40,970 nt of DNA from Eubacteriales bacterium (GTDB lineage Bacteria > Bacillota > Clostridia > Oscillospirales > JAAYXM01): positions 1 through 40,970 of the forward strand of contig JAZOAS010000151.1 in NCBI GenBank assembly GCA_045595605.1, written 5' to 3'. The translations under genes were made by a program, and so were the position numbers. Shown piece after piece: positions 1,894 to 39,872 of the stretch (positions within the stretch are counted from its first letter, which is position 1; each line of letters starts with the position of its first letter). The notes under the pieces were generated by a model, which saw nothing but the letters and a program-made list of their open reading frames with translations, searched no databases and had not been told where the DNA came from.

Positions 1894-1896
1894 GAA

Positions 1897-3276: not shown

Positions 3277-3293
3277 GAAAGGGTGCGGCTTTT

Positions 3294-5148: not shown

Positions 5149-5154
5149 TGATGT

Positions 5155-5928
5155 ATGAAATTTGACTTGCATATACATACAACTGCATCGCCCGATTCCA
5201 TTCTTGAACCGGAAGAGCTTTTCAGGATTGCAAAGGAAAGAGGGCTTGACGGCGTAGCCGTCACAAACCACAATGTCCTTCAGAATGTAAAAAGCGAAAA
5301 CGGCATATATGTAATCCCCGGCTGTGAGGTTTCAACCGATGCGGGGCATATGCTTGTTTTCTTTTTGAAAAGTGATATATGCAGTGAGCTTTCAAAAAAC
5401 GAAAAGGGTGTATATTCCTACCGCGAGGTTATAGAAAAAGCGCATGGCGAGGGTGCTGTCGTATTTGCGGCGCATCCGTACTCTCCGGTTGTAGCGCGAG
5501 AGGAAGGTATATGGGACGAGCTTGACGGTGTTGAGGTTTTCAATTCCCGAATAGTCCACTCCAAAGAGTTCTTTGCAAATGAAAAGGCGGCGCTTTTATG
5601 TGTCGATAAAGGGCTTGCGTTCTCCGTCGGAAGCGATGCCCATTCCCCTGACGAGGTTGGGGTGGCGTTCTGGGAGAGCTCCCTTACGCGCGCAGATATG
5701 GAAAATGAAGATTTTGAAGAAAGGCTCAAGGCCGAACTCCTTTTCGGAAGCGGAAAAGCTTACGGAGGATACGCGCCGAGAAGTGCAGTATATAACTGTC
5801 GCAGAAAAACATATATAAAGAGAAAAATGCCGAAGAAATTCATAAAAAGCTATTTTATATGCGCTTTTTTATGGCTTCGTGATATTATAAAAGGAAAGAA
5901 GAATAGCGGATATATTGAGTTGAGGTGA
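5155..5928 (+). CDS. PHP-domain metal-dependent phosphoesterase
   Basis: 257 aa with N-terminal FDLHIHTTASPDS (the HxH motif of the PHP fold), later AAHPYS and GSDAHSP, and a basic C-terminal tail. A GAGG RBS lies 6-10 nt upstream. Confidence 0.7.
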   Translation: MKFDLHIHTTASPDSILEPEELFRIAKERGLDGVAVTNHNVLQNVKSENGIYVIPGCEVSTDAGHMLVFFLKSDICSELSKNEKGVYSYREVIEKAHGEGAVVFAAHPYSPVVAREEGIWDELDGVEVFNSRIVHSKEFFANEKAALLCVDKGLAFSVGSDAHSPDEVGVAFWESSLTRADMENEDFEERLKAELLFGSGKAYGGYAPRSAVYNCRRKTYIKRKMPKKFIKSYFICAFLWLRDIIKGKKNSGYIELR

Positions 5929-5933
5929 GATAA

Positions 5934-7289
5934 GTGATATTATACGACCTTGCAAGACGCGCAAAACACAAGCTTCGCGATTACAAAAGAAGTCGCGATT
6001 GCGAATATATAACTCCTGTCAGACGAATTGAGAAGGTCTATCCGATAAAGGGTGAGCGCATCTGCGCGATGACCTTTGACGACGGTCCGACGGTTGCAAA
6101 AACTTGCCCCGAGGTATCTGAGCTCGGGCTTACTGAGCATCTTCTCACGACTCTTGAAAAATATGGTGCCCGCGGGACCTTTGATGTTATAGGTACAACA
6201 GAGGAAAACTATCCCGATGAAGCGGGAGAGCACGGCTCGTTCTCTTGGGGCGGGGTAAAGTATGACCATTACCCCGACATAAACCGCGATACTGAGGCGG
6301 GGGCTAAAAACCGCCCTGAGCTCATAAAGAGAATAATTGACGGCGGTCACGAAATATCAAACCACGGTTACCGTCATGTGCTTTTCGGACACTTGAAGCT
6401 TGTTTATGGCGCACGCGCACACTTTGATACTATTCACGAGGTAGTTGAGGATATGATGAAGCTTGATAAGCTCATTTTATCCGAGCATAATTGCAAGATT
6501 CGCCTTGCAAGACCGCCTCACTATGTCGATAAAATTCCCGACGGAAAAACATCATACGATGCATACCGCTATGCAGGGTATAACTACATGGCGGCAAGCT
6601 TTGACGGTGGCGGCTGGCTTCCGTCGTGCGGGGATACTGAGCGCGATGTTGAGGCTATGGTTGCGCCGATTGAAAAAGCGCTTTCCGAAAACCCCGATTC
6701 GCTCAACGGTCAGATAATCTTCCAGAAGGACGGGTACAGCATGTCCCGCCACACTCCGGTTGCGGAGGCTCTCCCGAAACAGCTTGAGCTTCTGTCAAAA
6801 TACGGTTATAAGGTTGTTACCGTGTCTGAGCTTCTTGCACGCTCCTCCTTTGAAGACTGCGAAAATGAGGATGCAACCGCACTTGCAACTGCGGGATATA
6901 CGGTCGCTTACAGGAATAACACTCTCCAGCCTGAAAGAGGGCTTACCTTTGGCGAGCTTGTCGTGATGGCGACTTCTCCCGATGCGGTAAACAAAGCTTA
7001 CAGAGAATTTGTCGATTCGGATTACAACACCGAAAAGCTCTCTGTCGATGCTGCAAAAAGCTACGGCGTTTCCGAAAAACACCCGTATTTTATTGCGTTC
7101 TGTGTAGCAAGCGAGCTTGGGCTTATTGATAAAGAGAATAAGGATAAACTCTCATATAAAAGTGCTGTTACGGGAAAAATGTTCTCAGAGTTTATGAAGA
7201 AACTCGCGCCCGGGTATGAGTTTACGATTTCCTCAGGCGCGCTTAAGCGCGGAGAGGTCTTTTCCCATCTCCGCTTGGCACTTTTGTAA
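5934..7289 (+). CDS. polysaccharide deacetylase (NodB homology domain) with an uncharacterised C-terminal region of about 150 aa
   Basis: 451 aa with NodB motifs MTFDDGPT and ISNHGYRHV. GTG start is preceded by GAGGTG. Confidence 0.75.
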   Translation: MILYDLARRAKHKLRDYKRSRDCEYITPVRRIEKVYPIKGERICAMTFDDGPTVAKTCPEVSELGLTEHLLTTLEKYGARGTFDVIGTTEENYPDEAGEHGSFSWGGVKYDHYPDINRDTEAGAKNRPELIKRIIDGGHEISNHGYRHVLFGHLKLVYGARAHFDTIHEVVEDMMKLDKLILSEHNCKIRLARPPHYVDKIPDGKTSYDAYRYAGYNYMAASFDGGGWLPSCGDTERDVEAMVAPIEKALSENPDSLNGQIIFQKDGYSMSRHTPVAEALPKQLELLSKYGYKVVTVSELLARSSFEDCENEDATALATAGYTVAYRNNTLQPERGLTFGELVVMATSPDAVNKAYREFVDSDYNTEKLSVDAAKSYGVSEKHPYFIAFCVASELGLIDKENKDKLSYKSAVTGKMFSEFMKKLAPGYEFTISSGALKRGEVFSHLRLALL

Positions 7290-8490: not shown

Positions 8491-9714
8491 ATGACAGATA
8501 TCAGAGAAAAGCTAAATATAACCATTGAATCAAAGCATTGGGATGAAGCTTTTGAAAAAGCGCTCAATGAACCGGGAATTCCCGAATGGATGACTGAAAA
8601 GTTTTTGAGAGATTTGCATAAGGAGACAGACCTTCTGCCTGATACAATTGAAAATCTTGTAGAGGCAGTTCAGCTTGCGGTGGAAAACCCTGACCTCGTT
8701 CTTCTCGCAAAGACGGTGTATCATATACTTGCAAAAAAACTTCCGGGTTCGGAAGCGATTTCCAAGTATGAGCAGATAAAAGCTCCTGAGGGTATCGAAA
8801 ATCCGATGGGCTATGACCTTGTTATGGCGTTTCCTCTGGTCGCTCATCTTAAGCTCTCGTGGAAAGAACTGATTGACCGCGGAGTTGACAGTGATATTGC
8901 AAAGAAGAGCCTTATGTTCATAAACGATGTGTTAAAGGACATAGAAAGAATTGAAGGAAAACCGACCACTTCAAACTATCTGATAAACTATCATAAAGTA
9001 GGTATTTATGTAAATCAGCTCTTCATCAATCGTCTTCGCTTTGAGCTTCACGAAAACTCAAGCCGTCCGGGAAAGGTCTTTATGAACAAAAACGGCGATA
9101 TGAAGGTGCTTATGTGCAACTGCACTCTCCATAAGAGCGGATACCTTCTCGGTTCAGGAAACTATACCGACGAGGAGGGCTCATACGATGCAAACTTTGT
9201 CGAAACGGAAACTACATACGAGGGCTACGCGGTAGGGGATGATACCCATGTCGCAGAAAAGACAAGAACGGTTCTTGAGAAAAGCGAATGGACTCCCGTT
9301 TTTGTTCCGGGTGATACTGTCCTCAAGGTTCATATCTCTCCGGGACCGGGATTTACAAAAGAAGCGTGTGAGGAGTCATATGCAAGAGCAAGGGAAGTTT
9401 TCACCCGTTGCTATTCCGAATATGACTTCAAGGGCTTTGTAACCTGTTGTTGGATGCTCTCACCCGTGCTTCGCGAGATACTGAAGCCGGATTCGAACAT
9501 CATAAACTTCCAGAATAAGTTTAAGGTATTCCCTGCGGAGAATACAGCGCTTGATGTGTATATGTATGTTTATAAGCTTCACCCGAAGTCGATTGACGAG
9601 GTTGATTTTGAGAATCTACCTGAGGAGAATTCAATGCAGCGCGGAGTCAAGCAGAAGGGTCTTGAAGGGAAGTTTGTTCAGCAGTGCAACGGTTTTATTC
9701 CGTTTAAAGAATAA
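8491..9714 (+). CDS. hypothetical protein, possibly of the NAT_N/GNAT_C 'acyltransferase domain-containing' family
   Basis: 407-aa soluble ORF and the last gene before the terminator at 9719. The C-terminal block VHISPGPGFTKEACEESY...CCWMLSPVL...SNIINFQNKF resembles, from memory, the GNAT-like C-terminal domain family. This is not verifiable here. Confidence 0.45.
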   Translation: MTDIREKLNITIESKHWDEAFEKALNEPGIPEWMTEKFLRDLHKETDLLPDTIENLVEAVQLAVENPDLVLLAKTVYHILAKKLPGSEAISKYEQIKAPEGIENPMGYDLVMAFPLVAHLKLSWKELIDRGVDSDIAKKSLMFINDVLKDIERIEGKPTTSNYLINYHKVGIYVNQLFINRLRFELHENSSRPGKVFMNKNGDMKVLMCNCTLHKSGYLLGSGNYTDEEGSYDANFVETETTYEGYAVGDDTHVAEKTRTVLEKSEWTPVFVPGDTVLKVHISPGPGFTKEACEESYARAREVFTRCYSEYDFKGFVTCCWMLSPVLREILKPDSNIINFQNKFKVFPAENTALDVYMYVYKLHPKSIDEVDFENLPEENSMQRGVKQKGLEGKFVQQCNGFIPFKE

Positions 9715-20716: not shown

Positions 20717-21496
20717 TTAGATAAGCTTTACTGTGTAATAGATGCCCGTGATAACGATGTATGCGATAAGACCGAAGATAAAGTAAATCGCAAGATCCGG
20801 AGCAAGGAACGCAGCAGCGAGGAGAAGAAGAGAGAGGAGATATGTGAGGTAGATGAGTGTGTACTTAGCATCGCTCTTGAACACAGAAACCTCACGGCCG
20901 AAGACCTTCAAACTTCCCTTGCCGACCTGAACTGCAATTGTGAAAGCAGCGAGGAGAACGACAAGAACCGCAACCGCGATGAGAACGAACATATCAGCTG
21001 AGTTTACGATGTCTGACTTGAAAAGCCAGATTCCAACGCCACTCAAAATGGAAGAAAGAGCGACCATAAAGAACTCGCGCTGGTATGAATAATAGACAAT
21101 GTAGAGAACTACGAGCGCGGGGATGAAAACATAAATAAGAGTAAGTGTTGTGCTTGAGAAGACGATAGCGAGAGCGGTTGAGACAACCGCGATAATCGCC
21201 GAAGCTATTGAGATATTCTTTCCGGAAAGAAGGCGATACTTCGTATCGATTCCTTTTGCGCGCTCAACAATAAGCATTATTATGCCGACAACGAAAAGCG
21301 CAATGAATACGCCGGAAGTGATTTTGGTAATGTTCCAGGCGGTGAGGTAGCTTGTAGTGCTCTTCATCATTCTGCTGATATTTGTAAAGAAAAGAAGAAG
21401 AGCGAAAGCGAGCGTGAAAACAAGAAGAAGCTTGTTAGTCACATAATCCTTCTTAACGGTTTCCGTTACTTCTCTTTTTGCCTTATTATCTTTCAA
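20717..21496 (-). CDS. polytopic membrane protein, function unknown
   Basis: 259 aa with about 7 hydrophobic segments. TTG start has GGGAG 9 nt upstream. I recognise no family motif. Confidence 0.6.
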   Translation of the reverse strand: MKDNKAKREVTETVKKDYVTNKLLLVFTLAFALLLFFTNISRMMKSTTSYLTAWNITKITSGVFIALFVVGIIMLIVERAKGIDTKYRLLSGKNISIASAIIAVVSTALAIVFSSTTLTLIYVFIPALVVLYIVYYSYQREFFMVALSSILSGVGIWLFKSDIVNSADMFVLIAVAVLVVLLAAFTIAVQVGKGSLKVFGREVSVFKSDAKYTLIYLTYLLSLLLLAAAFLAPDLAIYFIFGLIAYIVITGIYYTVKLI

Positions 21497-22669: not shown

Positions 22670-23470
22670 GTGATGAATATGGTAATAAGAATCCATAAAG
22701 CGACGGTTGCAATTTTCCTTGTCGCTCTGCTTGTTTTTTGTGTGCTTCCGTATTTTCCTGCGGGAGATGTGTCTCCCGTGTCGGGCGGAACATACGAAAA
22801 CTGGGGTCTTTCGTTTCAGGAGAGCGGAAAAACTCCCATAGGAAATGCGACAAAGGATTTTTTAGGCAAGTACGATGCTTACTTTGTGGGAGATGAAGGC
22901 GAAAAGGTGATTTATCTTACCTTTGACGCAGGCTATGAAAATGGGTGCACGGAGAAAATTCTCGATACCCTGAAAAAACACGAGGTTCCCGCGGCGTTTT
23001 TCCTTGTAGGAAATTACATAGACAAAGAGCCTGAGCTTGTAAAGCGCATGGTGGAGGAAGGACATATAGTCGGAAATCATACCCTTTCGCATCCCGATAT
23101 GTCAGCGATAGAGGATGAAGGAAAGTTCAAAAACGAGCTTTCTGAGCTCGAGGAGAAATACAAGAGCGCGTGCGGTGAGGAAATGAAAAAGTTTTACCGC
23201 CCGCCGCAGGGGAAATTTTCAGAGCGAAATCTTCAAATGGCGCAGAAGCTCGGATACAAAACGGTTTTCTGGAGCCTTGCGTATGTCGATTGGTATGAGA
23301 ATAAGCAACCGTCAAGAGAGTATGCAATGAAGACACTCACCGAGCGAATCCACCCGGGAGCCGTAGTTCTTCTCCACAGCACATCAAAAACAAACGCCGA
23401 GATTTTAGATGACCTTCTCACTGAATGGAAGGATATGGGCTACCGCTTCGAGAGTATAGAGAGCTTATAA
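22670..23470 (+). CDS. pdaA: delta-lactam-biosynthetic de-N-acetylase-like polysaccharide deacetylase (PdaA-like)
   Basis: Signal anchor followed by strong block similarity to B. subtilis PdaA as I recall it (NWGLSF, KYDAYFVGDEGEKVIYLTFDAGYENG, FFLVGNY, EGHIVGNHTLSHPDM, YRPPQGKFSE, KTVFWSLAYVDW, HPGAVVLLH). The exact start among ATGs at 22670-22682 is uncertain. Confidence 0.8.
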   Translation: MMNMVIRIHKATVAIFLVALLVFCVLPYFPAGDVSPVSGGTYENWGLSFQESGKTPIGNATKDFLGKYDAYFVGDEGEKVIYLTFDAGYENGCTEKILDTLKKHEVPAAFFLVGNYIDKEPELVKRMVEEGHIVGNHTLSHPDMSAIEDEGKFKNELSELEEKYKSACGEEMKKFYRPPQGKFSERNLQMAQKLGYKTVFWSLAYVDWYENKQPSREYAMKTLTERIHPGAVVLLHSTSKTNAEILDDLLTEWKDMGYRFESIESL

Positions 23471-23508: not shown

Positions 23509-25158
23509 TTACTTAATATACTTCCACGGGTTTACATATCTGCCGTTTACATGAACCTCGAAGTGAACATGCGGACCTGAGCTGTTACCTGTGCTTCCCA
23601 TTTTCGCAATCTGCTCACCCTTTGCAACCTTCTGACCAACCTTTACGGTAACTCGTGAGTTGTGAGCGTAATAGGTTTCGATACCATTGCCGTGGTTTAT
23701 AACGACGAGATATCCCCAACCGCCGCGCTTCCAGCCGGCCCATGTGACCGTACCGCCGTCAGCTGCGGAAATTCGTGTGCCCATCTTTGCGGCAAAGTCA
23801 ACACCCTTGTGCATGCTGCCACGGCGCATACCGTAGTTCGAGGAGATGATACCGCCGCTTATCGGGCGTGAGAGTTTTCCTGTTGCGACGGTCTTGGGTC
23901 TTGCTTTTGTTCCGACATGAACAACCTTTGTTACAGGCTGTTTTGTGACTGTGCTTGAGAGGATGTCACGGGAGACTTCCTTATTATCAACATAGGTGAC
24001 ATCGGCAACAACCGTTCTCGTTCCGACGCGACCCTGAGTTACAACCTTTGAAGAGCCTTTGTAGATTGAAGAATCTTCAACCTGCTTTGTTTCAAAGGGG
24101 ATAGTTTCCGTATATTCAACACGGCGGATAGCTTCAACCGAGAGGAAGGGAACTTCCTTTGCGACCGTAACATTCTTGCCGGCGCGGAGGTTTCTTGATG
24201 TGAGTGACGGGTTGAGCTCCAAAAGCTCATCTGTTGTCATTCCGTTTGCCTTGGCAATCTTATCAATGGTATCTCCGGACTTTATCTTATACTGCTTTGA
24301 TGTGTGAATTGTTGATGTGAGCTTCTCGCGAATTTCGTCATACGAAATGAGCTTTGAGGAGTCAACATATCTCTGTGAAATCTGAACATCCTGAGCAAAG
24401 TGAGCCCTAACATTCGGGTCGTTTGTGTAAAGAAGCTCGTCAAGCATATTCTGAAGAACCTCACGGCTTCGGCTTGCACCGACGACCTCACCGTCAACAG
24501 TGATAGCATAGAGAGCAGAAATTTCGTCGATTTCCGAGAAGAAGAAGGAGCGGATAGCATCCTTTGATATAACCTTTTCGCGCGGGACTATACCGAGCTC
24601 GAATTTGACGGGGAGAGTAACGCTGTACGGGCGACCGAGGATTTCTGTAGCGCGGTCCTCAACAAAGCGAAGTGCTTCGTTGTATTCCTCACGGCTGTAC
24701 ATATAGCCAAGCTCTTTGCCGTCAGCGGTAATTTTGATACCCACGCTGTAAAAGGTTGAAGCGATGAGTGTGAGCGTAACTGCAAGAAGTGAAATCGCAA
24801 GCGCAAAACGGTTTGCGCGGAACTGTGCAATCGCGACGGTCGCGGTATGCGATTTAACGCGGAGATAATCGCGGACTTTTACAAAAGCTTCAGAAAGAAC
24901 ACTCGCAAGAGCGAAGATAAAGACCGTTGCAGGGACAATAACTCGCGAATGGAAAACCGTTCCGAAAATAACTGCGGAGTGGATAACTTTTGAATAAACA
25001 AAAGAGAAGAACTCGCAAAGAAGCGCGAAGATGCCGCAGAGCACATTATATATTCTGTTGTTGGTGGTGATAGCTGAAGGAGCAACGCCGACTGACGCTA
25101 CTGCACTTTCAGAAGAATGTGTCTCGTTGGACAAAGTTCTCACCGCATTTCCTTTCAT
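23509..25158 (-). CDS. membrane-anchored LysM / G5 / M23 peptidoglycan metalloendopeptidase
   Basis: 549 aa with N-terminal TM helices, LysM (YKIKSGDTIDKIAKANGMTTDELLELNP), a G5-like block (ETKQVEDSSIYKGSSKVVTQGRVGTRTV) and M23 motifs (HKGVDFAA, YYAHNS, GSTGNSSGPHVHFEV). Confidence 0.85.
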   Translation of the reverse strand: MKGNAVRTLSNETHSSESAVASVGVAPSAITTNNRIYNVLCGIFALLCEFFSFVYSKVIHSAVIFGTVFHSRVIVPATVFIFALASVLSEAFVKVRDYLRVKSHTATVAIAQFRANRFALAISLLAVTLTLIASTFYSVGIKITADGKELGYMYSREEYNEALRFVEDRATEILGRPYSVTLPVKFELGIVPREKVISKDAIRSFFFSEIDEISALYAITVDGEVVGASRSREVLQNMLDELLYTNDPNVRAHFAQDVQISQRYVDSSKLISYDEIREKLTSTIHTSKQYKIKSGDTIDKIAKANGMTTDELLELNPSLTSRNLRAGKNVTVAKEVPFLSVEAIRRVEYTETIPFETKQVEDSSIYKGSSKVVTQGRVGTRTVVADVTYVDNKEVSRDILSSTVTKQPVTKVVHVGTKARPKTVATGKLSRPISGGIISSNYGMRRGSMHKGVDFAAKMGTRISAADGGTVTWAGWKRGGWGYLVVINHGNGIETYYAHNSRVTVKVGQKVAKGEQIAKMGSTGNSSGPHVHFEVHVNGRYVNPWKYIK

Positions 25159-27462: not shown

Positions 27463-28362
27463 TTACGACAGGAATTCGTCCATCTCCTCTATTGTGATGT
27501 CCTTTTGAAGAGCAGAATTAATCGCATATCCCAAAATCCGCCCCATGTCTGAGATGTGAACATCGATATCCTTCGGCGTAACGAGAAGTCGCTCGCCGTA
27601 GTCTGAAAGCGCGCTCTTCGGGATTTCGATATTTGCATTTTCTGCAAAGCCTTCGATTATTGTTTCAATGTTAACAACCGTCGGAACGCCCATTGCGATA
27701 ACGGGAATACCCATTGTCTTTTTATTTATCGCGCGTCTTGAATTTCCGACGCCCGAGCCCGGAACGATGCCGGTATCAGTTATCTGAACGGTTTTGCAAA
27801 GCCGCTCCAACCGCATTGATGCGAGCGCGTCGATAACTATAATGCAGTCGGGAGAAACGCTTTTTATGACACCGCGTATTATCTCGCTGCTCTCAACCCC
27901 CGTCATTCCGAGAACTCCGGGCGCGACAGCCGAAACGGGGCGCATTTTTCCGAAAAGTGCGGGGAGCGTATCTACAAGGTGGCGGGTTACCATTATGTGT
28001 GAGACGGTCTCAGCGCCGATAGCGTCGGGCGTGATACCGCGGTTTCCAAGCCCCGCAATTAGCACAGCTCCACTTCCGTCGGGCAAAAGGGCAGAAAGCT
28101 CCTTTGCAACCGCGCGGATAGCGCGTGGGAATATATCAACATCGCGCCGAGAGATTCCCTGAAGCTCGACAGTCGTGTATGAGCCGACGGGTTTTCCGAG
28201 TTTTCGCGCGCCGTCCTCGTCTAAAATTTCAACTCTTGAAACGCGGAAGCCTTCGGTTTCCGAATCCTCTGCGCGTACACCGCGAAGCTCCGTCGTATTC
28301 TTTTCGTTTTCCTGCCACACCTCGCGGGCTTCCGAGGCAAGGTCTGTTCTTGAATTATTCAA
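27463..28362 (-). CDS. gpr: germination (spore) protease GPR
   Basis: 299 aa with RTDLASEA, GLGNRGITPDAIG, RPVSAVAPGVLGMTGVES, IIVIDALA and TDTGIVPGSGVGN, matching B. subtilis Gpr blocks. It is adjacent and divergent to rpsT, as in Bacillus. Confidence 0.9.
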   Translation of the reverse strand: MNNSRTDLASEAREVWQENEKNTTELRGVRAEDSETEGFRVSRVEILDEDGARKLGKPVGSYTTVELQGISRRDVDIFPRAIRAVAKELSALLPDGSGAVLIAGLGNRGITPDAIGAETVSHIMVTRHLVDTLPALFGKMRPVSAVAPGVLGMTGVESSEIIRGVIKSVSPDCIIVIDALASMRLERLCKTVQITDTGIVPGSGVGNSRRAINKKTMGIPVIAMGVPTVVNIETIIEGFAENANIEIPKSALSDYGERLLVTPKDIDVHISDMGRILGYAINSALQKDITIEEMDEFLS

Positions 28363-28879: not shown

Positions 28880-28908
28880 TTGCAAGAAGTAAGATTTTGT
28901 TGTAAAAT
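28880..28908 (+). promoter_or_regulatory. putative sigma-A promoter for the rnf-like operon
   Basis: TTGCAA-17 nt-TAAAAT, about 40 nt upstream of rnfC. Confidence 0.5.
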
Positions 28909-28947
28909 AATTGTGTATATACTAATGTAAAAACGGAGGTGAAGCGA

Positions 28948-30267
28948 ATGCCTGTTAACTTCAAAGGGGGAATTCATCCCGCGGGGAAAAAGACTGTGAT
29001 GATGAAAAAAGCCATAGAGGAAATGGACCCGCCTTCAGAAATTGTGTTGCCGCTTCTTATGCATAAAGGAACTATCTGCAGCCCCATCGTTGAGGTGGGG
29101 GACCGCGTAAGGCTCGGTCAGAAGGTTGCAGAGAGTACGGCGGCACTGTCCGCGCCGATATTCTCATCCGTATCCGGAACCGTTACGGAAATTTCTCCGC
29201 GCCTGCACCCTTGCGGTGAGGAGATTTTATCCGTTGTAATAAAAAATGATTTTGAGGACGAGGGTGTAGAGCTTCCCGAAGTTCACGACAGATTCCGTAC
29301 TCTTGATGCGGCAGAGCTTGCTCTTGTGGCAAGAGACGCGGGCATCGTAGGTCTTGGCGGAAGTGCTTATCCGTTGTCTGAGAAGCTTCTTGCATCAAAC
29401 GGTGAGGTTGACACTCTTATTATAAACGGCGCGGAATGTGAGCCGTACATAAGTGCAGACAACCGCGTTATGATTGAATATACGGAAGACCTTTACGAGG
29501 GAACTTCTGCTATTGCCCATGCGCTCGGAATAAAGAATGTCTGGATTGCGGTACAGTCGGATAAGGCGGGCGCGATTGCAGAGCTTCGAAGATTTCTTGC
29601 AAAGAAGCCCGGCATCAAGCTTTGCATAGTTCACACGAAGTATCCGCAGGGCTCGGAACGCCACCTTATAGAAGCTGTAACGGGAAGAAAAGTTCCGGCA
29701 GATAAGACCGCTGTTGATGCGCGCGTTATCACGGTGAATGTTTCGACTGCCGTTGCGCTTTCCCACGCGATAAAGGACGGAACACCGCTCACGACGAGAG
29801 TTGTCACGGTTGCGGGAAGCGCGGTTGCAAACCCGAAAAACCTCCTTGTAAGGATTGGTACTCCGATAAGTGAGCTTTTCAAGGCTTGCGGAGGCTTTCT
29901 TGAACACCCTGACAAGATAATAATGGGCGGACCGATGATGGGGTTTGCGCAAAGCTCACTTTCTGTTCCTGTTATAAAGGGGACAAACGGCCTTCTCGCA
30001 TTCTCGCGTGGCGAGGGCGAGAGCAAAAGGCAGACAAGCTGTATCCGCTGCGGAAAGTGTGTCGGCGTGTGCCCGATGAAGCTTGAACCGCTCTTTATAC
30101 ACCGCGCGTACAAGTTTGGTGACCTTCCCGAGTGCCACGAGTATAATGTGGAAGATTGCATCGAATGTGGCTCGTGCGCGTATGTATGTCCCGCAAACAT
30201 TCCGCTCGTTTCGGAATTCCGTGAAATAAAGAATAAGCTTTCGGAGGAGGATACAAATGAAGATTGA
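28948..30267 (+). CDS. rnfC: Rnf electron transport complex subunit C (divergent nucleotide/FMN loop)
   Basis: Contains FKGGIHP near the N-terminus, INGAECEPYISAD, and two ferredoxin motifs CIRCGKCVGVCP and CIECGSCAYVCP. Start is at ATG 28948, 8 nt after GGAGG. Confidence 0.9.
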   Translation: MPVNFKGGIHPAGKKTVMMKKAIEEMDPPSEIVLPLLMHKGTICSPIVEVGDRVRLGQKVAESTAALSAPIFSSVSGTVTEISPRLHPCGEEILSVVIKNDFEDEGVELPEVHDRFRTLDAAELALVARDAGIVGLGGSAYPLSEKLLASNGEVDTLIINGAECEPYISADNRVMIEYTEDLYEGTSAIAHALGIKNVWIAVQSDKAGAIAELRRFLAKKPGIKLCIVHTKYPQGSERHLIEAVTGRKVPADKTAVDARVITVNVSTAVALSHAIKDGTPLTTRVVTVAGSAVANPKNLLVRIGTPISELFKACGGFLEHPDKIIMGGPMMGFAQSSLSVPVIKGTNGLLAFSRGEGESKRQTSCIRCGKCVGVCPMKLEPLFIHRAYKFGDLPECHEYNVEDCIECGSCAYVCPANIPLVSEFREIKNKLSEEDTNED

Positions 30268-31312
30268 TACAAAGCGCTTATTCGTGTCCTCATCTCCGCA
30301 TATCCGTACGGATGACGACACCCGCTCAATAATGTTTGATGTTATCGTTGCGCTTGCGTTCCCGCTTATTATGGCGATTTACTTTTTTGGTTGGCGCGCG
30401 CTTGTGCTTACGGTAATTTCGATTGTTTCTTCTGTTTTGTTTGAGTTTCTCTTCTGCAAAATGGTTAAGAAAGACTCAACGACGAGAGACCTCTCGGCAG
30501 TTGTAACAGGGCTTCTTCTCGCGCTCTGTCTTCCTGTTTCGGTTCCGCTATGGATGCCGGTCGTCGGAAGCTTTTTTGCGATTGTCGTTGTAAAGAACCT
30601 CTACGGAGGTCTTGGTAAGAACTTTTTAAACCCCGCGCTTTCGGCACAGGCGTGTCTCTTCTCATGGCCTGCGCTTATGTCGCTCTGGACAAAGCCGAAT
30701 CTCGGCGCAAATGCGCTTTCAGCATTTGGCAACATCACGCGTGAAAAGCTTACGGCTGATGTTATCGCGTCCGTAACCCCGCTTGCGAAGATGAAGCTCG
30801 GATACCTTCCGACTGCGGCTATGGGGGATGTTGATGTCATCTCGCGCCTTCGCGATGTTGCAATGGGAAACGTTGCAGGTTCAATGGGCGAGGTATCGGC
30901 AGTTGTTATTATTGCGGCTGCAATATACCTTCTCATCCGTCGCGTTATCACGATACACATCCCCGCATCCTATGTTCTTACGGTTGCGCTCCTTACATTT
31001 ATCTTCCCACTCGGTGGAAATCCGAACCTTATCTGGTCGCTTTTCAGCGTCCTTTCGGGAGGACTTTTGTTCGGTGCTGTGTTCATGGCAACTGACTATG
31101 CGACAAGTCCCGCAACTCCGCGCGGAAGAATAGTTTACGGAATCGGTTGCGGTGTGCTGACATTTGTGCTTCGCTATTTTGGCGCGTACAACGAGGGTGT
31201 AACCTTTGCAATTCTGATTATGAATCTTATGACATTCTTCATAGAGCGCGTATGTCGTGGTCGAAGATATGGCGTTGAAAAGACAAAGGCAGGTGCTGAA
31301 AATGAAGAATAA
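30257..31312 (+). CDS. rnfD: Rnf complex subunit D
   Basis: 351-aa polytopic protein with SSSPHI, LSAVVTGLLLAL, NFLNPAL, GSMGEVS and FMATDYATSP blocks of the RnfD/NqrB family. Confidence 0.9.
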   Translation: MKIDTKRLFVSSSPHIRTDDDTRSIMFDVIVALAFPLIMAIYFFGWRALVLTVISIVSSVLFEFLFCKMVKKDSTTRDLSAVVTGLLLALCLPVSVPLWMPVVGSFFAIVVVKNLYGGLGKNFLNPALSAQACLFSWPALMSLWTKPNLGANALSAFGNITREKLTADVIASVTPLAKMKLGYLPTAAMGDVDVISRLRDVAMGNVAGSMGEVSAVVIIAAAIYLLIRRVITIHIPASYVLTVALLTFIFPLGGNPNLIWSLFSVLSGGLLFGAVFMATDYATSPATPRGRIVYGIGCGVLTFVLRYFGAYNEGVTFAILIMNLMTFFIERVCRGRRYGVEKTKAGAENEE

Positions 31313-32015
31313 AAAGTTTTCGTTCCCGAAAATCTCTTTTAAAGAGGTATCTGCCGAAAAGAAAAAAGAGGTTTTAAAGGCAACGCTTACTGTTTCAGTA
31401 GTGGCGATTGCAGCTGCGATTGTCCTTGGTGGAGTGTCAAATCTCCTCGGTGGGATTACTCTTAAAAATGCAGACAGGCGAGTCTATGATGCTATGGAAC
31501 GCCTTATGCCCGATGCAGCTTATGAAAAAATGACACCGCAGTTTGACTCTGCGGTAGCCATTGACGCTTTGTATGAAGTGAAGAAAGACGGAGAGTCTGC
31601 AGGATACTGTGTAAAGACATCTGCCAAGGGCTATGAAAACCCGATTGAGATTCTCGTTGCGATTGATGCAGAAGGGGCTGTTGCAGGCGTTGAGGTTTTG
31701 TCAATAGACGAAACAATCGGATACGGAAAAAATATCGAGAGTGAGGAATTCCTCTCTCAGTTCAAAGGCAAGAACGAGGAGCTTACGGTTGTAAGAGGAA
31801 AAGCCGATGTATCAAGTAAAATTTCGGCTGTGTCCGGTGCTACTGTTTCTTCAAATGCGGTTAAAGAGGGCGTAAACCACGCGCTCGCCGCAGTTTCTCA
31901 GCTTCGCGCAGATGCGGAAGAAAAAGCTGCGGCGGAAAAGGCTGCGGCAGAGGCAAAAGCGGCAGAAGAACTTCTGACAGCCGAGAATAATGCGGAAGGA
32001 GAGGTGGCACAATGA
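31302..32015 (+). CDS. rnfG: Rnf complex subunit G (FMN-binding), with Ala/Glu-rich C-terminal tail
   Basis: N-terminal TM anchor and an FMN_bind domain with the flavinylation motif SAVSGATVSS. Start is taken at ATG 31302 (MKNKKF), behind AGGTG, overlapping the rnfD end. Confidence 0.85.
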   Translation: MKNKKFSFPKISFKEVSAEKKKEVLKATLTVSVVAIAAAIVLGGVSNLLGGITLKNADRRVYDAMERLMPDAAYEKMTPQFDSAVAIDALYEVKKDGESAGYCVKTSAKGYENPIEILVAIDAEGAVAGVEVLSIDETIGYGKNIESEEFLSQFKGKNEELTVVRGKADVSSKISAVSGATVSSNAVKEGVNHALAAVSQLRADAEEKAAAEKAAAEAKAAEELLTAENNAEGEVAQ

Positions 32016-32617
32016 AGAAGATAATAGCTTTTCTTAAAAAGAGCGTGCTCCTTGAAAACCCCGCAATCACACTCTTCGCGGGAATAACTCCTGTTCTCGC
32101 GGTGTCAACGCGCCTTCTCGACGGTGTGTTTCTCGGGATTTCGGCGATCTTCTGTATAACAGTATCGTCACTTTTCTTCTGGATGCTCAAAAAAGTGATA
32201 CCTGAGAAGCTTTGCGATGTTGTATATATTCTTATAGTTGCGATAGTTGTTGGGCTGTGCGAGCTTCTGCTTCTTGCATTCTTGCCGTCAATTTACAAAA
32301 ACCTCGGGATATATCTGCCGCTTCTCGCGGTAAGCGGGCTTGTATTCTCCCGTTCTAAGAAGTTTTCAAAGGAAGAAAAACTCGGCAAAGCTCTTCTTGA
32401 GGGTCTTTCATGCGGAATAGGGTATTTTGTGCTTGCGGTGGCGCTTGCTCTCGTCCGTGAGTTTTTCGGCCGTGGCGCAGTGGCGGGCTTTGCGGTAATC
32501 CCTGAAAAGTACGCAATGTCACTTCTCATAAGCCCGGTTGGCGGATTTATGCTTTTTGGAATACTCATAGCTGTTTTCAGAAGCGTTTTTGCAAATAAGA
32601 GTGAGGGGGAAGAATAA
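32012..32617 (+). CDS. rnfE: RnfE-like membrane subunit (lacks canonical Cys ligands)
   Basis: 201-aa Rnf-Nqr family by overall pattern (LLENPA...LAVST, LPSIYKNLGIYLPLL, LEGLSCGIGY) and by its position between rnfG and rnfA. It overlaps the rnfG stop by 4 nt. Confidence 0.8.
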   Translation: MKKIIAFLKKSVLLENPAITLFAGITPVLAVSTRLLDGVFLGISAIFCITVSSLFFWMLKKVIPEKLCDVVYILIVAIVVGLCELLLLAFLPSIYKNLGIYLPLLAVSGLVFSRSKKFSKEEKLGKALLEGLSCGIGYFVLAVALALVREFFGRGAVAGFAVIPEKYAMSLLISPVGGFMLFGILIAVFRSVFANKSEGEE

Positions 32618-33181
32618 ATGGGAATATTTAAAATTTTATTTCTGAGCCTTGCGGCAGTTTTCTCCGAAAACCTGATATTTGCAAAATATCTCGGCTTCGA
32701 GCCGTTTCTGACCGAAACAAAAAACACAAAAACGGCAGTTTTGTCAGGACTTTCAATAACGCTTCTCACGGCTGTGACCTGCTTTGTGACAAGCCTTGTT
32801 GATATCTTGCTTCTCAAGCGTTTTTCAATAGAATATATGAGAACATTTGTGTTCGTACTCATTATGGTGGCCTTGTGGAAAGTTCTTGTATCGTGCCGCA
32901 GAAGGTTTAAATTTCAGCTTTCTTATGTTCTTTCAAGTACAGCAATTCTCGGAACCGCGCTTATAGTTTCTTCAAATGGATTCAATCCGTTTGAAGCTCT
33001 CGTTTACGGAATTTTTGCAGGGCTTGGATATATGCTTTCTTCATTTATCTTTGCCGAGATTCGTGCGCGACTTAAGTATTCAAATGTACCGAAGTTTTTT
33101 GAAGGCGTTCCGATTCTCCTCATTACGGCGGGGCTCATCGCTCTTGCGTTTGTAGGATTTCACGGAATGAAGTTTATGTAG
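32618..33181 (+). CDS. rnfA: RnfA-like membrane subunit (lacks canonical Cys ligands)
   Basis: 187-aa Rnf-Nqr family pattern (EYMRTFVFVLIMVAL, GIFAGLGYMLSSFIFAEIRARL, PILLITAGLIALAFVGF). Its ATG abuts the rnfE TAA. Confidence 0.8.
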   Translation: MGIFKILFLSLAAVFSENLIFAKYLGFEPFLTETKNTKTAVLSGLSITLLTAVTCFVTSLVDILLLKRFSIEYMRTFVFVLIMVALWKVLVSCRRRFKFQLSYVLSSTAILGTALIVSSNGFNPFEALVYGIFAGLGYMLSSFIFAEIRARLKYSNVPKFFEGVPILLITAGLIALAFVGFHGMKFM

Positions 33182-33192
33182 GAGGCAGAAAA

Positions 33193-33345
33193 ATGGAAGC
33201 CTTGATAAATATTGCAATCGCTCTTGCGGTGAGCGTTGTACTCGGCGCTGTCACAGGGGTTATCTTCGTTGCTTCAGACTCACCGAAGATAAAGAAAACA
33301 GAAGTGATAGAAGAGAAAGAGGAAAGTGCATCGGAGGTGCTCTGA
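33193..33345 (+). CDS. 50-aa single-pass membrane micro-ORF in the position of rnfB
   Basis: Absent from the track because it is under 60 aa. I translated it by hand: MEALINIAIALAVSVVLGAVTGVIFVASDSPKIKKTEVIEEKEESASEVL*. A strong AGGAGG lies 8 nt upstream, spanning the rnfA stop. Its TGA shares one nt with the next ATG. Confidence 0.45.
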   Translation: MEALINIAIALAVSVVLGAVTGVIFVASDSPKIKKTEVIEEKEESASEVL

Positions 33346-34379
33346 TGAAGAAACAGAGAAGATACAGAGGTTCAAAGCAGAGGGTCGGATTTCTCATTCC
33401 GTCTCTTGTTGCGCTTTGTCTCATCGCCGCCGGCGCTCTTTATGTCATAAACAACAATATGACATTTACAAAAGAAGGTTCGTTCTTCATTCCTGAAAAA
33501 GAAGAAACTCCGCAGGATGTGGAGACGAATCTGATAATCGAAGAGCCTGAAGAAGAGGAGAAGATTGAAGCTGTTATCCCTCAGACGCCGGTTGATAACG
33601 AAGCTTCAGGCGTCCGGGCTCTTTTTATCCCTGTCGGAAGTGTAAAGAGCCGTGAGCTATTTGATGCAGAGCTTATAAACGCAAGGAACATAAATGCGAA
33701 CATGCTCATCCTTGAGGTGAAAGCTGAGGACGGAACTCTCGCCTTTGCAACCAAGACGCGGATAGGTCAGAGTACGGGACTTGCCGGGGACAGCATAGCT
33801 CTTTCGGAGACTGTAAAGAGCGCGAAGGATGCAGGATATCGCGTGGCGCTTTATATGTCGTGCTTTAAAGATAATGAAGCGGCGCGAAAGAATCAGATTT
33901 ACTCTGTCCGTACGGCGAACAAGATAATCTGGCTTGACGGCGAGAATATGCGCTGGCTCTCGCCTTATTCGGCAGATGCAGAAGAGTATCTTGCCGAAAC
34001 CGTCCGTGAGCTTTCAGAGTTTGGACCTGATGAGATTATCCTTTCAAATGTATCTTTCCCGACATATGGAAAGACGGATATTATAGAATATGAAGACGGC
34101 GGAATTTCAAAAGAAAAGAAGCTTTCCGAATTTATTTCAAAAGTAGCGCAATCCGCAGGAAACATTCCCGTTTCTGCCGTGTATGAAAACTATAAAGGAA
34201 ACGCGCTTTCAAGAAGCGGGCAGAGCACAAAGCTTTTCGCGGATAGCTTTACGACGGTTTATATAAACGAAAACGGCGGGAACAACACCGCAGCGTTTGA
34301 GGAGGTTAAAACTCAGTTTAAAAACGCGGTTCCGATTAAAGCATCTCCGTCAGGCGATGAATATGTAATTAAAAAATAA
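33345..34379 (+). CDS. membrane-anchored putative glycoside-hydrolase-like protein (DUF4015/GHL-type TIM barrel)
   Basis: 344 aa with an N-terminal anchor (GFLIPSLVALCLIAAGALYVI), an acidic linker, then the NINANMLILEVKAEDGTLAF pattern that I associate with the DUF4015 'putative glycoside hydrolase' family. The family call is from memory. Confidence 0.5.
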   Translation: MKKQRRYRGSKQRVGFLIPSLVALCLIAAGALYVINNNMTFTKEGSFFIPEKEETPQDVETNLIIEEPEEEEKIEAVIPQTPVDNEASGVRALFIPVGSVKSRELFDAELINARNINANMLILEVKAEDGTLAFATKTRIGQSTGLAGDSIALSETVKSAKDAGYRVALYMSCFKDNEAARKNQIYSVRTANKIIWLDGENMRWLSPYSADAEEYLAETVRELSEFGPDEIILSNVSFPTYGKTDIIEYEDGGISKEKKLSEFISKVAQSAGNIPVSAVYENYKGNALSRSGQSTKLFADSFTTVYINENGGNNTAAFEEVKTQFKNAVPIKASPSGDEYVIKK

Positions 34380-34383
34380 GAAA

Positions 34384-34410
34384 AATGCGAGGTAGAAGCT
34401 ACCTCGCATT
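34384..34410. terminator. bidirectional terminator (end of rnf-like operon / end of minus-strand deacetylase)
   Basis: 12-bp stem AATGCGAGGTAG / CTACCTCGCATT with loop aag. Its right arm overlaps the last codons of the 34399-35256 gene. Confidence 0.7.
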
Positions 34411-35256
34411 TTCTGCTTTATTGAGAATTTTTGTTATATCCCGACCGTGAGCGCGGTTGTAGCGTTTTATGTCAAAAAGCTCGTTTTTATCTCCGCTCAA
34501 AAGGTTAATTTCCTCATATGTGCCAAGCGATGCGGAGAAACCGTGCTCTATTATCATTTCGCGAAGTGTGTCATTTGTCCCGCCGTATGGGTAAGTAAAG
34601 CATATGGGAGAGAAACCTAAGTTTTCTTCAAAGACGCTTTGGGAGTGCACAATGTCATCGTGCATTACTGTTTTGTAGTGTTCCTCTGCCTCGCCGTTTA
34701 TTTTGAGGCAACCGTGGCGGTCATCGAGCGAGTGCATATTGTAGGAATGGTTCTGAAATTCGCAAAGGCCGGATGATGCCATTTCCTTTATCTCATCCCA
34801 CGAAAGATGCGCATAGTTTATATGCCTGTCTATCCCGGGAGTGGAATATCTGTCAGTGTATGCGCCGACAACAGAAAAAACAGCCTTCATATTGTATTTT
34901 TTGAGAAGCGGGAAGACATTACGGTAGTCCGTGAGATAACCGTCGTCGAAGGTGAGCATAACAGGCTTCTTCGGGAGTGCGCGCTTTCCGTCGCAGAAGT
35001 CTTTTAAGTCTTTGAGCGTAACGGTTTCATACCCGCGCTCTGAAAGAAGTCTGAGGTCAGCTTCAAGCTCGCGGGGAGATATGACATATTTGCCAAGCTT
35101 TTTCGGAAGATCAAGCACCTGATGGTACATAAGCACAGGAAGCGATACGCGCTCGTCGAGATATGAGAGTGCATCTTTTTCCGTCGGCGCGAAAAGCGAG
35201 GAGAGCGTTATTACCGCCGCGAATATTAGAAAAAAGGACTGTCGGATATATTTCAT
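34399..35256 (-). CDS. polysaccharide deacetylase family protein (NodB domain), secreted or anchored
   Basis: 285 aa with a signal/anchor, then LTFDDGYLTDYRNVFPLLKKYNMKAVFSVVG and a later HSYNMH motif. Confidence 0.8.
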   Translation of the reverse strand: MKYIRQSFFLIFAAVITLSSLFAPTEKDALSYLDERVSLPVLMYHQVLDLPKKLGKYVISPRELEADLRLLSERGYETVTLKDLKDFCDGKRALPKKPVMLTFDDGYLTDYRNVFPLLKKYNMKAVFSVVGAYTDRYSTPGIDRHINYAHLSWDEIKEMASSGLCEFQNHSYNMHSLDDRHGCLKINGEAEEHYKTVMHDDIVHSQSVFEENLGFSPICFTYPYGGTNDTLREMIIEHGFSASLGTYEEINLLSGDKNELFDIKRYNRAHGRDITKILNKAENAR

Positions 35257-38230: not shown

Positions 38231-38701
38231 ATGGAAAAGACAAATGTAATGAGAATACTCGACCGCGCAAAGCTCCCTTACACTCCGCACTATTACGAAA
38301 GTGATGGTGCGATAGCGGGAGTTGAGGTTGCAAAGATTATTGAAAAACCGTGTGAATGTGTTTTTAAAACACTTGTAACGGCCGCAAAAAGCGGTACAAA
38401 TTATGTGTTTATGATTCCCGTCGCCGAGGAGCTCGACCTCAAAAAAGCGGCAGCCTCGGTTGGGGAAAAGTCAATAGAGATGCTTCCGTCGAAGAAGCTT
38501 CTTCCGACAGTGGGGTATATCCACGGCGGATGCTCGCCTATCGGAATGAAAAAACAGCTTCGTACTACTGTTCATGAAAGTGCTCTCTCGTGTGAAAAAA
38601 TTGTTTTCAGCGCAGGAAAGATTGGAACGCAGGTTGAAATGACGCTTTCCGATTTATCAAAGGTTGTAAAGATTGAAACAGCGGATGTTATTAAACCATA
38701 A
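38231..38701 (+). CDS. ybaK: Cys-tRNA(Pro)/Cys-tRNA(Cys) deacylase YbaK
   Basis: 156 aa with TNVMRILDRAKLPY, FKTLV and GGCSPIG blocks of the YbaK editing-domain family. Confidence 0.85.
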   Translation: MEKTNVMRILDRAKLPYTPHYYESDGAIAGVEVAKIIEKPCECVFKTLVTAAKSGTNYVFMIPVAEELDLKKAAASVGEKSIEMLPSKKLLPTVGYIHGGCSPIGMKKQLRTTVHESALSCEKIVFSAGKIGTQVEMTLSDLSKVVKIETADVIKP

Positions 38702-39182
38702 GTGAGAAGATGACTTTCTCAAGCTCAGCTGCGACACCGTCTGATGTCCCGGGAAGAATGGTAAGTGTTGCGATATAGGTGTTGTCACTTGCATCGTAAA
38801 TAACTTTTTTAATTCTGGTATCTTTCGAGAAGAACTCTGAGATAATGCACGGGATGCTGTTCAATGTTTTTGTTTCGAAAGAAGAAAGTTCGATGTCGTC
38901 ATAGCCCTCGTCCTTCATCATGGAAACAAAATTGCGCTCGTCCATATCGGATACGCCGTCCTGCTTTTCTTCTCTGAGGATGGTTACATTAGATCCTGTT
39001 TCCTCGTCCATAATAACGAAATCAATTTCAGAGCCGAGATGCGACACGGTGTATTTTTCGGGGTACTCCACACAGTATCCGTTATCGGATGAGTAGGTTG
39101 TGAGCTTGCTTGGTTGAGACGTGCAAGCGCAAAGTATGCAAATAAGAGAGATTGCTAAAATAGCAGAAATAATTTTCTTCAT
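38691..39182 (-). CDS. lipoprotein, function unknown
   Basis: MKKIISAILAISLICILCAC carries a lipobox (L-C-A-C). ATG 39182 lies 8 nt after GGAGGA. The 3' end overlaps the ybaK end by 11 nt (convergent). Confidence 0.6.
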   Translation of the reverse strand: MKKIISAILAISLICILCACTSQPSKLTTYSSDNGYCVEYPEKYTVSHLGSEIDFVIMDEETGSNVTILREEKQDGVSDMDERNFVSMMKDEGYDDIELSSFETKTLNSIPCIISEFFSKDTRIKKVIYDASDNTYIATLTILPGTSDGVAAELEKVIFSLMV

Positions 39183-39212
39183 AAATTTATCCTCCGTAAA
39201 TGACATAAAACT

Positions 39213-39350: not shown

Positions 39351-39872
39351 ATGAAAATAGCAGAGGACCTTATAAGAAAGGGGAGTATAAACCGTCCGGG
39401 AACAAAGAATTCGTGCCGCTATATAACCGTTCACGATACGGGAAATAAGACGGTAGGCGCAGGCGCGAGCGCACATGCAAGCTACATAAAAAGCCTAAAA
39501 AGCAGGACGAGCTGGCACTATACGGTTGATGACAGGGAGATTTACCGCCACATCCCCGACAGCGAAAAGAGTTATCACACTTCGGACAAGTTCGCAAACG
39601 AAAACTCGATTGCAATCGAGCTTTGTGTAAATTCAGACGGCGACTTTGAGAAAACTCTTGAAAATGGTGCATGGCTCGTGAGAGAGCTTATGGGAAAACA
39701 CAAAATTGAAGAGAAAAACATCCGCCGTCACTTCGACTGGACAGGAAAGAAATGTCCTGCAAGTCTTATGGACGGCGGATGGGAAAAGTTTCTCGCGAAA
39801 TGTCGTGGGCAGCCGAAAAGCATAAGCATTGATGAACTTCGCGAAATGGGCTACACAAGTATTTCGCTGTAA
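39351..39872 (+). CDS. N-acetylmuramoyl-L-alanine amidase (Amidase_2 / PGRP fold)
   Basis: 173 aa with ITVHDTGN, SWHYTVDD, YHTSD, SIAIELC and RRHFDWTGKKCP, the zinc-amidase blocks of CwlA/phage-type amidases. I see no obvious wall-binding domain. Confidence 0.85.
   Translation: MKIAEDLIRKGSINRPGTKNSCRYITVHDTGNKTVGAGASAHASYIKSLKSRTSWHYTVDDREIYRHIPDSEKSYHTSDKFANENSIAIELCVNSDGDFEKTLENGAWLVRELMGKHKIEEKNIRRHFDWTGKKCPASLMDGGWEKFLAKCRGQPKSISIDELREMGYTSISL

Follow-up and report, generated by a model that had tools for sequence, protein, structure and literature searches.

An Rnf-type operon of uncultured Oscillospiraceae lacks the [2Fe-2S] ligands of RnfA and RnfE and the iron-sulfur domains of RnfB

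We analysed a stretch of 40,970 nucleotides from an Eubacteriales bacterium (contig JAZOAS010000151.1 of assembly GCA_045595605.1, positions 1 to 40,970 of the forward strand), hereafter the window, and found that it encodes an Rnf-type operon in which the RnfA-like and RnfE-like subunits lack all four cysteines that canonically ligate the intramembrane [2Fe-2S] cluster. In current models, this cluster is the heart of the pump. We also observed a feature absent from the initial annotation of this DNA: RnfB has shrunk to a 50-residue, cysteine-free membrane helix. With the membrane iron-sulfur (Fe-S) centre and the ferredoxin-input subunit both gone, we infer that the complex is no longer a ferredoxin:NAD+ (nicotinamide adenine dinucleotide) oxidoreductase nor a cluster-gated Na+/H+ pump, so that it should not be able to act as a classical ferredoxin:NAD+ ion pump.

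Cluster ligands of RnfA and RnfE and the remnant of RnfB

All five rnf genes are matched by Pfam and NCBIfam models and lie on the forward strand in the order C-D-G-E-A. The initial annotation had given this order correctly but incompletely, as an RnfB stub and then a translationally coupled DUF4015 gene follow. In Acetobacterium woodii, RnfA contributes the [2Fe-2S] ligands C25 and C113 and RnfE contributes C25 and C108 (PMC11889175); we placed the corresponding columns by phmmer alignment to the solved Rnf/Nqr chains 7zc6, 9eri, 8ahx and 7xk3. In the rnfE-like gene (32012-32617, 201 residues), site 1 reads GITP where the canonical protein has GMCP, which puts T26 in the ligand column (codon 32087-32089, checked at the codon level), and site 2 reads VSG for VNC, giving S108-G109 (codons 32333-32338, with G109 at 32336-32338). 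In the rnfA-like gene (32618-33181, 187 residues), GFEPF replaces GICPF at site 1 (E28, codon 32699-32701) and SST replaces TNC at site 2 (S107-T108, codons 32936-32941, with T108 at 32939-32941). Alignment to solved structures thus bore out the claim that all four canonical ligand cysteines are replaced, by T26 and G109 in the RnfE-like and by E28 and T108 in the RnfA-like protein. Every peptide quoted in that claim was found in the sequence, numbering being the sole correction, and the remaining cysteines listed there do fall outside the ligand columns. A profile comparison agreed: the Pfam Rnf-Nqr family PF02508 matches both proteins (132.5 bits for RnfE-like, 84 bits for RnfA-like), while the NCBIfam scores stay far under their cut-offs (TIGR01948 for RnfE, 109.7 vs 213.4 bits; TIGR01943 for RnfA, 109.3 vs 229.3 bits).

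Other positions have changed as well. The A. woodii RnfE ion pair R67/E115 corresponds to C68/K116 in the window, where C68 (codon 32213-32215, within KLCDVV) is private to this sequence, all relatives having Arg or Lys. T110, T111 and N112 of A. woodii RnfA are L, S and S in the RnfA-like protein, which also carries an 8-residue deletion at the canonical VEM...LY segment that holds E88. An AlphaFold model of the RnfA-like protein is of low confidence (predicted local distance difference test score 60), and its best matches in the PDB are RnfA/NqrE (template modelling scores of 0.62-0.68); it supports only the retention of the RnfA/NqrE fold.

We considered whether the former ligand positions or the remaining cysteines have acquired a new role. 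In the RnfA column, E28 is present in 17 of the 19 members of the window's subclade and Lys in the other two, and across the wider Cys-deficient clade the residue is T, P, S, K or others. Glu is thus confined to the one subclade and the column varies elsewhere, which speaks against a conserved new role for the replacement residue. Three cysteines are specific to the same subclade, C83 and C134 of the RnfE-like and C55 of the RnfA-like protein, each kept in 12-13 of 18-19 members. They are not conserved beyond it, and an alternative four-cysteine site is therefore not supported.

The rnfB remnant (33193-33345, forward strand) has 50 codons, is preceded by an AGGAGG ribosome-binding site 7 nucleotides upstream and encodes a transmembrane helix with an acidic tail that aligns with the N-terminal helix of the relatives' RnfB. 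It contains no cysteine and has no Pfam match, and its ratio of nonsynonymous to synonymous substitution rates (dN/dS) is ~0.3. Among relatives, RnfB forms a length series of 273-276, 230-248, 168 and 48-50 residues. The longest form belongs to the canonical sister loci L013, L014 and L015 and includes the small [4Fe-4S] domain PF04060. In every Cys-deficient locus, a clean deletion of ~52 residues has removed exactly this domain, which carries cluster B8, and no canonical locus has the deletion. Half of the polyferredoxin is additionally gone in L002 and L004 (168 residues), and in the window, L003 and L016 the helix is all that remains, so that the combination of helix, PF04060 domain and polyferredoxin that makes up a complete RnfB is absent from the window. 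In the known complex, B8 passes electrons to the RnfA/RnfE cluster (PMC12174285; PMC11889175); therefore, donor and acceptor were lost together. We also observed that RnfB of six Cys-deficient relatives (L005, L006, L007, L010, L011 and L012) gained an acidic C-terminal motif, EEFDExEYF, which canonical RnfB does not have, and that these proteins hold 21-24 cysteines despite the loss of the B8 domain.

In A. woodii, mutating the cysteines of the [2Fe-2S] cluster (AE1) or of the RnfB [4Fe-4S] cluster B8 abolishes ferredoxin:NAD+ activity and autotrophic growth (PMC11889175). With none of the four AE1 ligands present and a Cys-free RnfB stub, comparison with these inactive mutants favours the earlier proposal that the canonical ferredoxin:NAD+ path should be unable to run.

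Recurrence, ancestry and selection

The ligand cysteines are likewise substituted in 19 RnfA-like and 17 RnfE-like proteins (48-89% identity) drawn from NCBI, ENA, JGI and Logan assemblies. Overall, about 20 assemblies of uncultured Oscillospiraceae/Eubacteriales, independent of one another, show the Cys-deficient state, and a genome scan placed the clade in at least five metagenome-assembled genomes (MAGs) labelled 'Eubacteriales bacterium'. Since the state is present in independent assemblies from four sources, an assembly or sequencing artefact is excluded. As a control set we used 80 metagenome loci from an RnfD-profile metagenome scan, with RnfD 42-54% identical to that of the window. Both cysteines are present in 50 RnfA and 59 RnfE open reading frames (ORFs) of this set; a single complete operon, L032, falls short of the ligand cysteines, and the remaining exceptions are fragmentary ORFs or ORFs cut by contig ends. 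Against this background, the substitutions in the window are far from a chance event. The scan returned relatives of at most 54% identity and no additional clade members. A profile was searched exhaustively against 1.84 billion representative sequences, and its best 150 RnfA-family hits were joined with 22 collected earlier. Of these 172 sequences, only about 56 have both cysteines; the others are for the most part metagenome singletons.

In a neighbour-joining tree of RnfC and RnfD (721 columns), the Cys-deficient loci all fall into a single clade, supported by 100% bootstrap. Its sister is L014, a fully canonical operon whose RnfD is 61-62% identical. The basal members L010 and L011 retain one of the four ligand cysteines, at RnfE site 1. 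The exceptional control locus L032 (Ga0123356_10026239, 409-4237) has T and S in the RnfA ligand columns, S and C in those of RnfE, and an RnfB of 234 residues without the B8 domain. In the RnfD tree it sits outside the clade, among canonical operons, and therefore represents an independent loss of the cysteines. Thus, the B8 domain and the ligands were lost together in two independent lineages. A very divergent rnfC/D/E/A-like set was also observed in an Angelakisella sp. MAG (L009, 660-5396); it has neither rnfG, rnfB nor the ligand cysteines, and a DUF4015 gene lies downstream of it.

The subunits differ in how fast they change. Pairs of canonical operons share 60-63% identity in RnfD, 66-72% in RnfA and 59-68% in RnfE, compared to 61-70%, 34-42% and 37-45% in Cys-deficient pairs. 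The evolutionary rate of RnfA and RnfE is two to four times that of their canonical counterparts. RnfC and RnfG track RnfD in the same comparison, as they do in canonical pairs. For the closest pair (the window and L016, dS 0.3-0.45), dN/dS is 0.13-0.20 for RnfE-like, 0.15-0.18 for RnfA-like and 0.13-0.21 for RnfG; RnfC and RnfD reach 0.06-0.09 in other pairs. Canonical RnfA, the most constrained subunit of its operons, has a dN/dS of ~0.03; constraint on RnfA is three to five times weaker here. These values show that RnfA and RnfE are relaxed several-fold yet clearly under purifying selection, as are all genes of the locus. At least 12 loci are free of stops and frameshifts, and ORF lengths stay constant even though RnfA/RnfE identity drops to 37-40%. 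Pseudogenes are ruled out by these dN/dS values and the intact ORFs. The initial annotation had described the complex as maintained and repurposed rather than decayed; its maintenance is supported by dN/dS values of 0.13-0.20 and intact reading frames, but repurposing is at most a candidate reading, and part of the story is stepwise loss.

The RnfC-RnfD-RnfG half and its possible function

The other half of the complex has kept its cofactor residues. RnfC (28939-30267, forward strand), the subunit with the NADH/flavin mononucleotide (FMN) module, looks canonical: it scores 498.8 bits against TIGR01945 (cut-off 246), aligns end to end with A. woodii RnfC (9eri_C, 347 bits) and carries the GLGGSAYP and NGAECEPY motifs and two CxxCxxCxxxCP [4Fe-4S] motifs. 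Its identity across the clade is 62-89%, and its match to the PrdC model is weak (169 bits vs a cut-off of 490). The membrane flavin subunit RnfD (30257-31312, forward strand; TIGR01946, 312 vs 207 bits) is better conserved than any other subunit of the operon (61-90% identity). Alignment to 9eri_D and 7zc6_D shows that it keeps both riboflavin-binding residues, N125 for N123 of A. woodii and D280 for D249, as well as the threonine that is flavinylated, Thr174 (codon 30776; T156 in A. woodii). The rnfG-like gene (31257-32015, forward strand) likely starts at the ATG at 31302, as relatives begin with MKNKK. It encodes an N-terminal membrane anchor and an extracytoplasmic FMN_bind domain (PF04205, 60.6 bits), scores below the NCBIfam cut-off (TIGR01947, 83.6 vs 102 bits) and, aligned to 7zc6_G and 9eri_G, keeps the flavinylation threonine of the SGAT motif (codon 31842) and the GY motif; SGATVSS is conserved. 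In A. woodii, RnfD N123, D249 and T156 and RnfG T185 and Y113 are required for function (PMC11889175), and the equivalents of these essential residues are conserved in the window. Taken together, the window retains the RnfC NADH/FMN site with its two [4Fe-4S] motifs, the RnfD flavin residues and the [S/T]GA[S/T] threonine of RnfG, with the caveats of a valine in RnfD, described below, and of an RnfG below its cut-off.

Two further features of RnfG were observed. A basic cytoplasmic motif, KKFSFPKISF, precedes its membrane helix (31302-31370); it is specific to the clade and is retained even in L012. In addition, the window's subclade has an extra Ala/Glu/Lys-rich C-terminal tail of ~35 residues (31908-32012).

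Based on these data, we tentatively propose, as the leading reading, a half-Rnf, a membrane complex derived from Rnf in which the ferredoxin-input branch has been dismantled and which may serve as a one-way conduit from NADH to the outside; we hold this to be a little short of an even call. Electrons from NADH would enter RnfC through its FMN and two [4Fe-4S] clusters, pass to RnfD (riboflavin, FMN) and on to the FMN of RnfG at the outer face of the membrane, and finally reach an extracytoplasmic acceptor, regenerating NAD+. The role left to RnfA, RnfE and the RnfB helix would be a structural one, as a scaffold that holds RnfD and RnfG; the helices of RnfB and RnfG pack against each other in A. 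woodii (PMC11889175). The clade has also gained features, namely the N-terminal motif of RnfG, the acidic C-terminal tail of RnfB and a much tighter rnfB-DUF4015 junction. A broader proposal, a half-Rnf class in spore-forming gut Oscillospiraceae that exports electrons from NADH, perhaps together with the DUF4015 protein as a cell-wall enzyme that is now co-transcribed, and that arose by ordered dismantling of the ferredoxin branch at least twice independently, is rather doubtful.

Several observations weigh against a conduit of this kind. Neither the operon nor the window encodes an acceptor, a reductase, a cytochrome or an ApbE flavin transferase. In L012, a common sister lineage (RnfD found in 30 index blocks, with 24 member sequences in its RnfD cluster), RnfG has been reduced to an 80-residue anchor without FMN_bind (9052-9294) while RnfC, RnfD, RnfE, RnfA and RnfB remain, which does not fit a wire that ends in RnfG. 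Directly ahead of the flavinylated Thr of RnfD, 15 of 16 canonical loci have Ala and the other, L019, has Ser. At this position the window has Val (V173-T174, 30773-30778), the Cys-deficient clade Val or Ile, and the independent Cys-deficient lineage L032 Pro; therefore, the FMN site of RnfD may also be changing. In a model protein, exchanging Ala for Val left ApbE flavinylation at about 50% (PMC12052999). Finally, the overall pattern of the clade is one of progressive loss. As a separate observation, the change before the RnfD threonine runs parallel to the loss of the clusters, and the surrounding motif DVIASVTPL is invariant in the core clade, compared to D-A-x-x-x-A-T-P in canonical relatives.

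This pattern of loss raises an alternative to the half-Rnf, that of a slowly decaying relic, in which the operon would persist for a useful RnfC and RnfD or for transcription of the DUF4015 gene while RnfA, RnfE, RnfG and the stub are disappearing. The order of the reductions, B8 first, then the polyferredoxin, then everything but the stub, fits such decay, as do the missing FMN domain of L012 RnfG, the accelerated evolution of RnfA and RnfE, and the finding that Cys-deficient RnfA proteins are mostly rare metagenome singletons. However, dN/dS in the closest pair is far from 1, reading frames remain intact at 37-40% RnfA/RnfE identity, translational coupling is kept, RnfG changes at a normal rate relative to RnfD, and features were acquired as well as lost. 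We consider a relic unlikely.

It is also conceivable, though distinctly improbable, that only the cytoplasmic RnfC still works, as a membrane-anchored NADH dehydrogenase/diaphorase or a PrdC-like donor, and that the membrane subunits are its anchor. RnfC is intact, its weak match to the PrdC model points the same way, and the C-terminal helix of A. woodii RnfC touches RnfB (PMC11889175). For relatives with a polyferredoxin RnfB, the same reading would allow a non-pumping short circuit from ferredoxin through RnfB and RnfC to NAD+, consistent with the 21-24 cysteines that their RnfB holds long after the loss of B8 and AE1. In the window this route would be impossible, because its RnfB has no Fe-S domain. 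A mere anchor would, moreover, have no need for the riboflavin and FMN residues that are invariant in RnfD, the most conserved subunit, or for the invariant flavinylation site of RnfG.

A redox-independent cation channel or transporter, formed by cluster-less RnfA and RnfE around the membrane-buried Glu28, is very unlikely. For the RnfA/RnfE pair, an inverted repeat with alternating access, Na+ transport has been proposed (PMC11889175), and E28 is nearly fixed in the window's subclade, but the column is variable in the wider clade and the residues of the A. woodii Na+ path (R67/E115 of RnfE; E88, T110, T111 and N112 of RnfA) are replaced or deleted. We regard as scarcely credible a last alternative, in which a redox centre, Fe-S or other, persists in RnfA and RnfE on non-canonical ligands or on C83, C134 and C55, so that electrons would still cross the pair: these cysteines are kept in most subclade members, but they are absent from the equally maintained sister subclades (L005-L007 and L010-L012), no electron donor is left because the window's RnfB has no Fe-S domain, and the B8 domain vanished along with the ligands in two independent lineages.

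Genomic surroundings and comparison with known systems

The DUF4015 gene (33345-34379, forward strand; PF13200, 68 bits) encodes an N-terminal anchor and a putative glycoside-hydrolase-like domain. Its start overlaps the stop of the rnfB stub by 1 nucleotide, so the gene is probably co-transcribed with rnf. It lies downstream of rnf in Cys-deficient and canonical relatives alike, including the canonical L014 and L015, and a partnership of DUF4015 with the Cys-less operons alone was therefore rejected. The linkage is thus ancestral, and only the tightening of the junction is specific to the clade: the rnfB-DUF4015 gap is 3-58 nucleotides in Cys-deficient relatives, compared to ~320 nucleotides in canonical sisters, where it holds a promoter-like site (L014, 11686-12007). 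The sole match of the DUF4015 profile in the PDB is the uncharacterised entry 4s1a. DUF4015 occurs fused to YkyA-type domains, like polysaccharide deacetylases (PMC12700454).

A promoter-like site (TTGCAA-17-TAAAAT, forward strand, 28880-28908) lies 5' of rnfC; it was found by consensus scan alone, with 9 of 12 matches and no evidence of function. A strong, bidirectional, intrinsic-terminator-like hairpin with a stem of 14-15 base pairs (34382-34412) ends both the rnfC-to-DUF4015 unit and a convergent deacetylase gene. The host is an uncultured gut spore-former, and the window encodes the GPR germination protease. A cell-wall and sporulation theme runs through the window, with three polysaccharide deacetylases, an M23/LysM/G5 peptidase, the GPR protease and an Amidase_2 protein (genes at 5934-7289, 22670-23470, 23509-25158, 27463-28362, 34399-35256 and 39351-39872). 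We also observed V/A-type ATPase subunits A, B and D (127-3938), an ATP-grasp protein, a PHP-domain protein and a 451-residue polysaccharide-deacetylase-domain protein (3925-7289), and two reverse-strand ORFs of 259 and 171 residues (20717-21496 and 38691-39206) with no Pfam match at E ≤1e-5.

Compared to canonical Rnf (RnfABCDGE; 7zc6, 9eri, 8ahx), the operon shares the order rnfC-D-G-E-A-(B), homology of all subunits, RnfC and RnfD above their NCBIfam cut-offs and the cofactor residues of RnfC, RnfD and RnfG. It differs in having no [2Fe-2S] ligands in RnfA and RnfE, an RnfB that is a helix with neither B8 nor polyferredoxin, RnfA, RnfE and RnfG below their cut-offs, the 8-residue deletion in RnfA, replaced Na+-path residues and Val before the RnfD threonine.

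The nearest precedent for a half-Rnf is the NQR/RNF-like two-subunit system, which consists of the RnfD/RnfG half only, for which one-way transfer from NAD(P)H to an extracytoplasmic FMN has been proposed, and which is altered at, and lacks, the canonical RnfD flavinylation site (Meheust et al. 2021, PMC8238504; Huang et al. 2024, PMC11334425). The two have in common an NAD(P)H-binding input on the cytoplasmic side, the part of the semicircular pathway that RnfD and RnfG provide, an altered RnfD-type flavinylation site and an adjacent membrane-anchored extracytoplasmic FMN_bind subunit, in the window the RnfG-like protein with PF04205 and SGAT. In the two-subunit systems, however, the RnfD-like protein carries a fused NAD-binding domain (PF00175) and there is no RnfA, RnfE, RnfC or RnfB, whereas the window's RnfD (351 residues) consists of PF03116 alone, keeps its threonine and is accompanied by a separate, intact RnfC input, cluster-less RnfA and RnfE and the RnfB helix. 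Those systems are found mainly in Actinobacteria and the candidate phyla radiation (CPR); the window's host belongs to a spore-forming Clostridia lineage.

Na+-NQR offers a second comparison, as its origin has been postulated from an rnf operon that lost rnfB (Reyes-Prieto et al. 2014, PMC4014512). Both are rnfCDGEA-type operons without a functional RnfB in which the RnfB helix is retained, and both keep cofactor-less subunits for structure: NqrA there and, as we propose, RnfA and RnfE here. In contrast, the four cysteines and the [2Fe-2S] cluster persist in NQR, which took on NqrF as its input and in which the cofactors of RnfC were lost. The window has lost the opposite half, with no sign of a new module for either input or output. 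The operon and the window contain no NqrF-type gene, nqr models score far below their cut-offs, and Fe-S and FMN motifs are still present in the RnfC/NqrA homolog.

A 2025 review describes the membrane cofactors of Rnf and Nqr as strictly conserved (PMC12174285), and our literature searches on Cys-less RnfA/RnfE, on DUF4015 with Rnf and on Oscillospiraceae rnfB found no earlier description. Annotation treats the products of such operons as standard 'RnfABCDGE' subunits or leaves them hypothetical; one such RnfE is a 'hypothetical protein' at NCBI. Metabolic reconstructions that credit such operons of gut and rumen Oscillospiraceae with Rnf energy conservation are probably wrong. Whether ions are translocated in RnfA/RnfE or in RnfD is disputed between studies of A. 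woodii Rnf and Vibrio cholerae Nqr (PMC11889175). The maintained clade is a natural 'AE1/B8-null' complex in which the RnfC-RnfD-RnfG half can be probed alone, and the same material could test ion translocation in RnfA/RnfE against RnfD. If the complex still translocates ions, the RnfD/RnfG half alone would be able to couple electron transfer to ion movement. In conclusion, the clade is a live example of module shedding and rewiring, which mirrors the rnfB-loss step postulated at the origin of NQR (PMC4014512).

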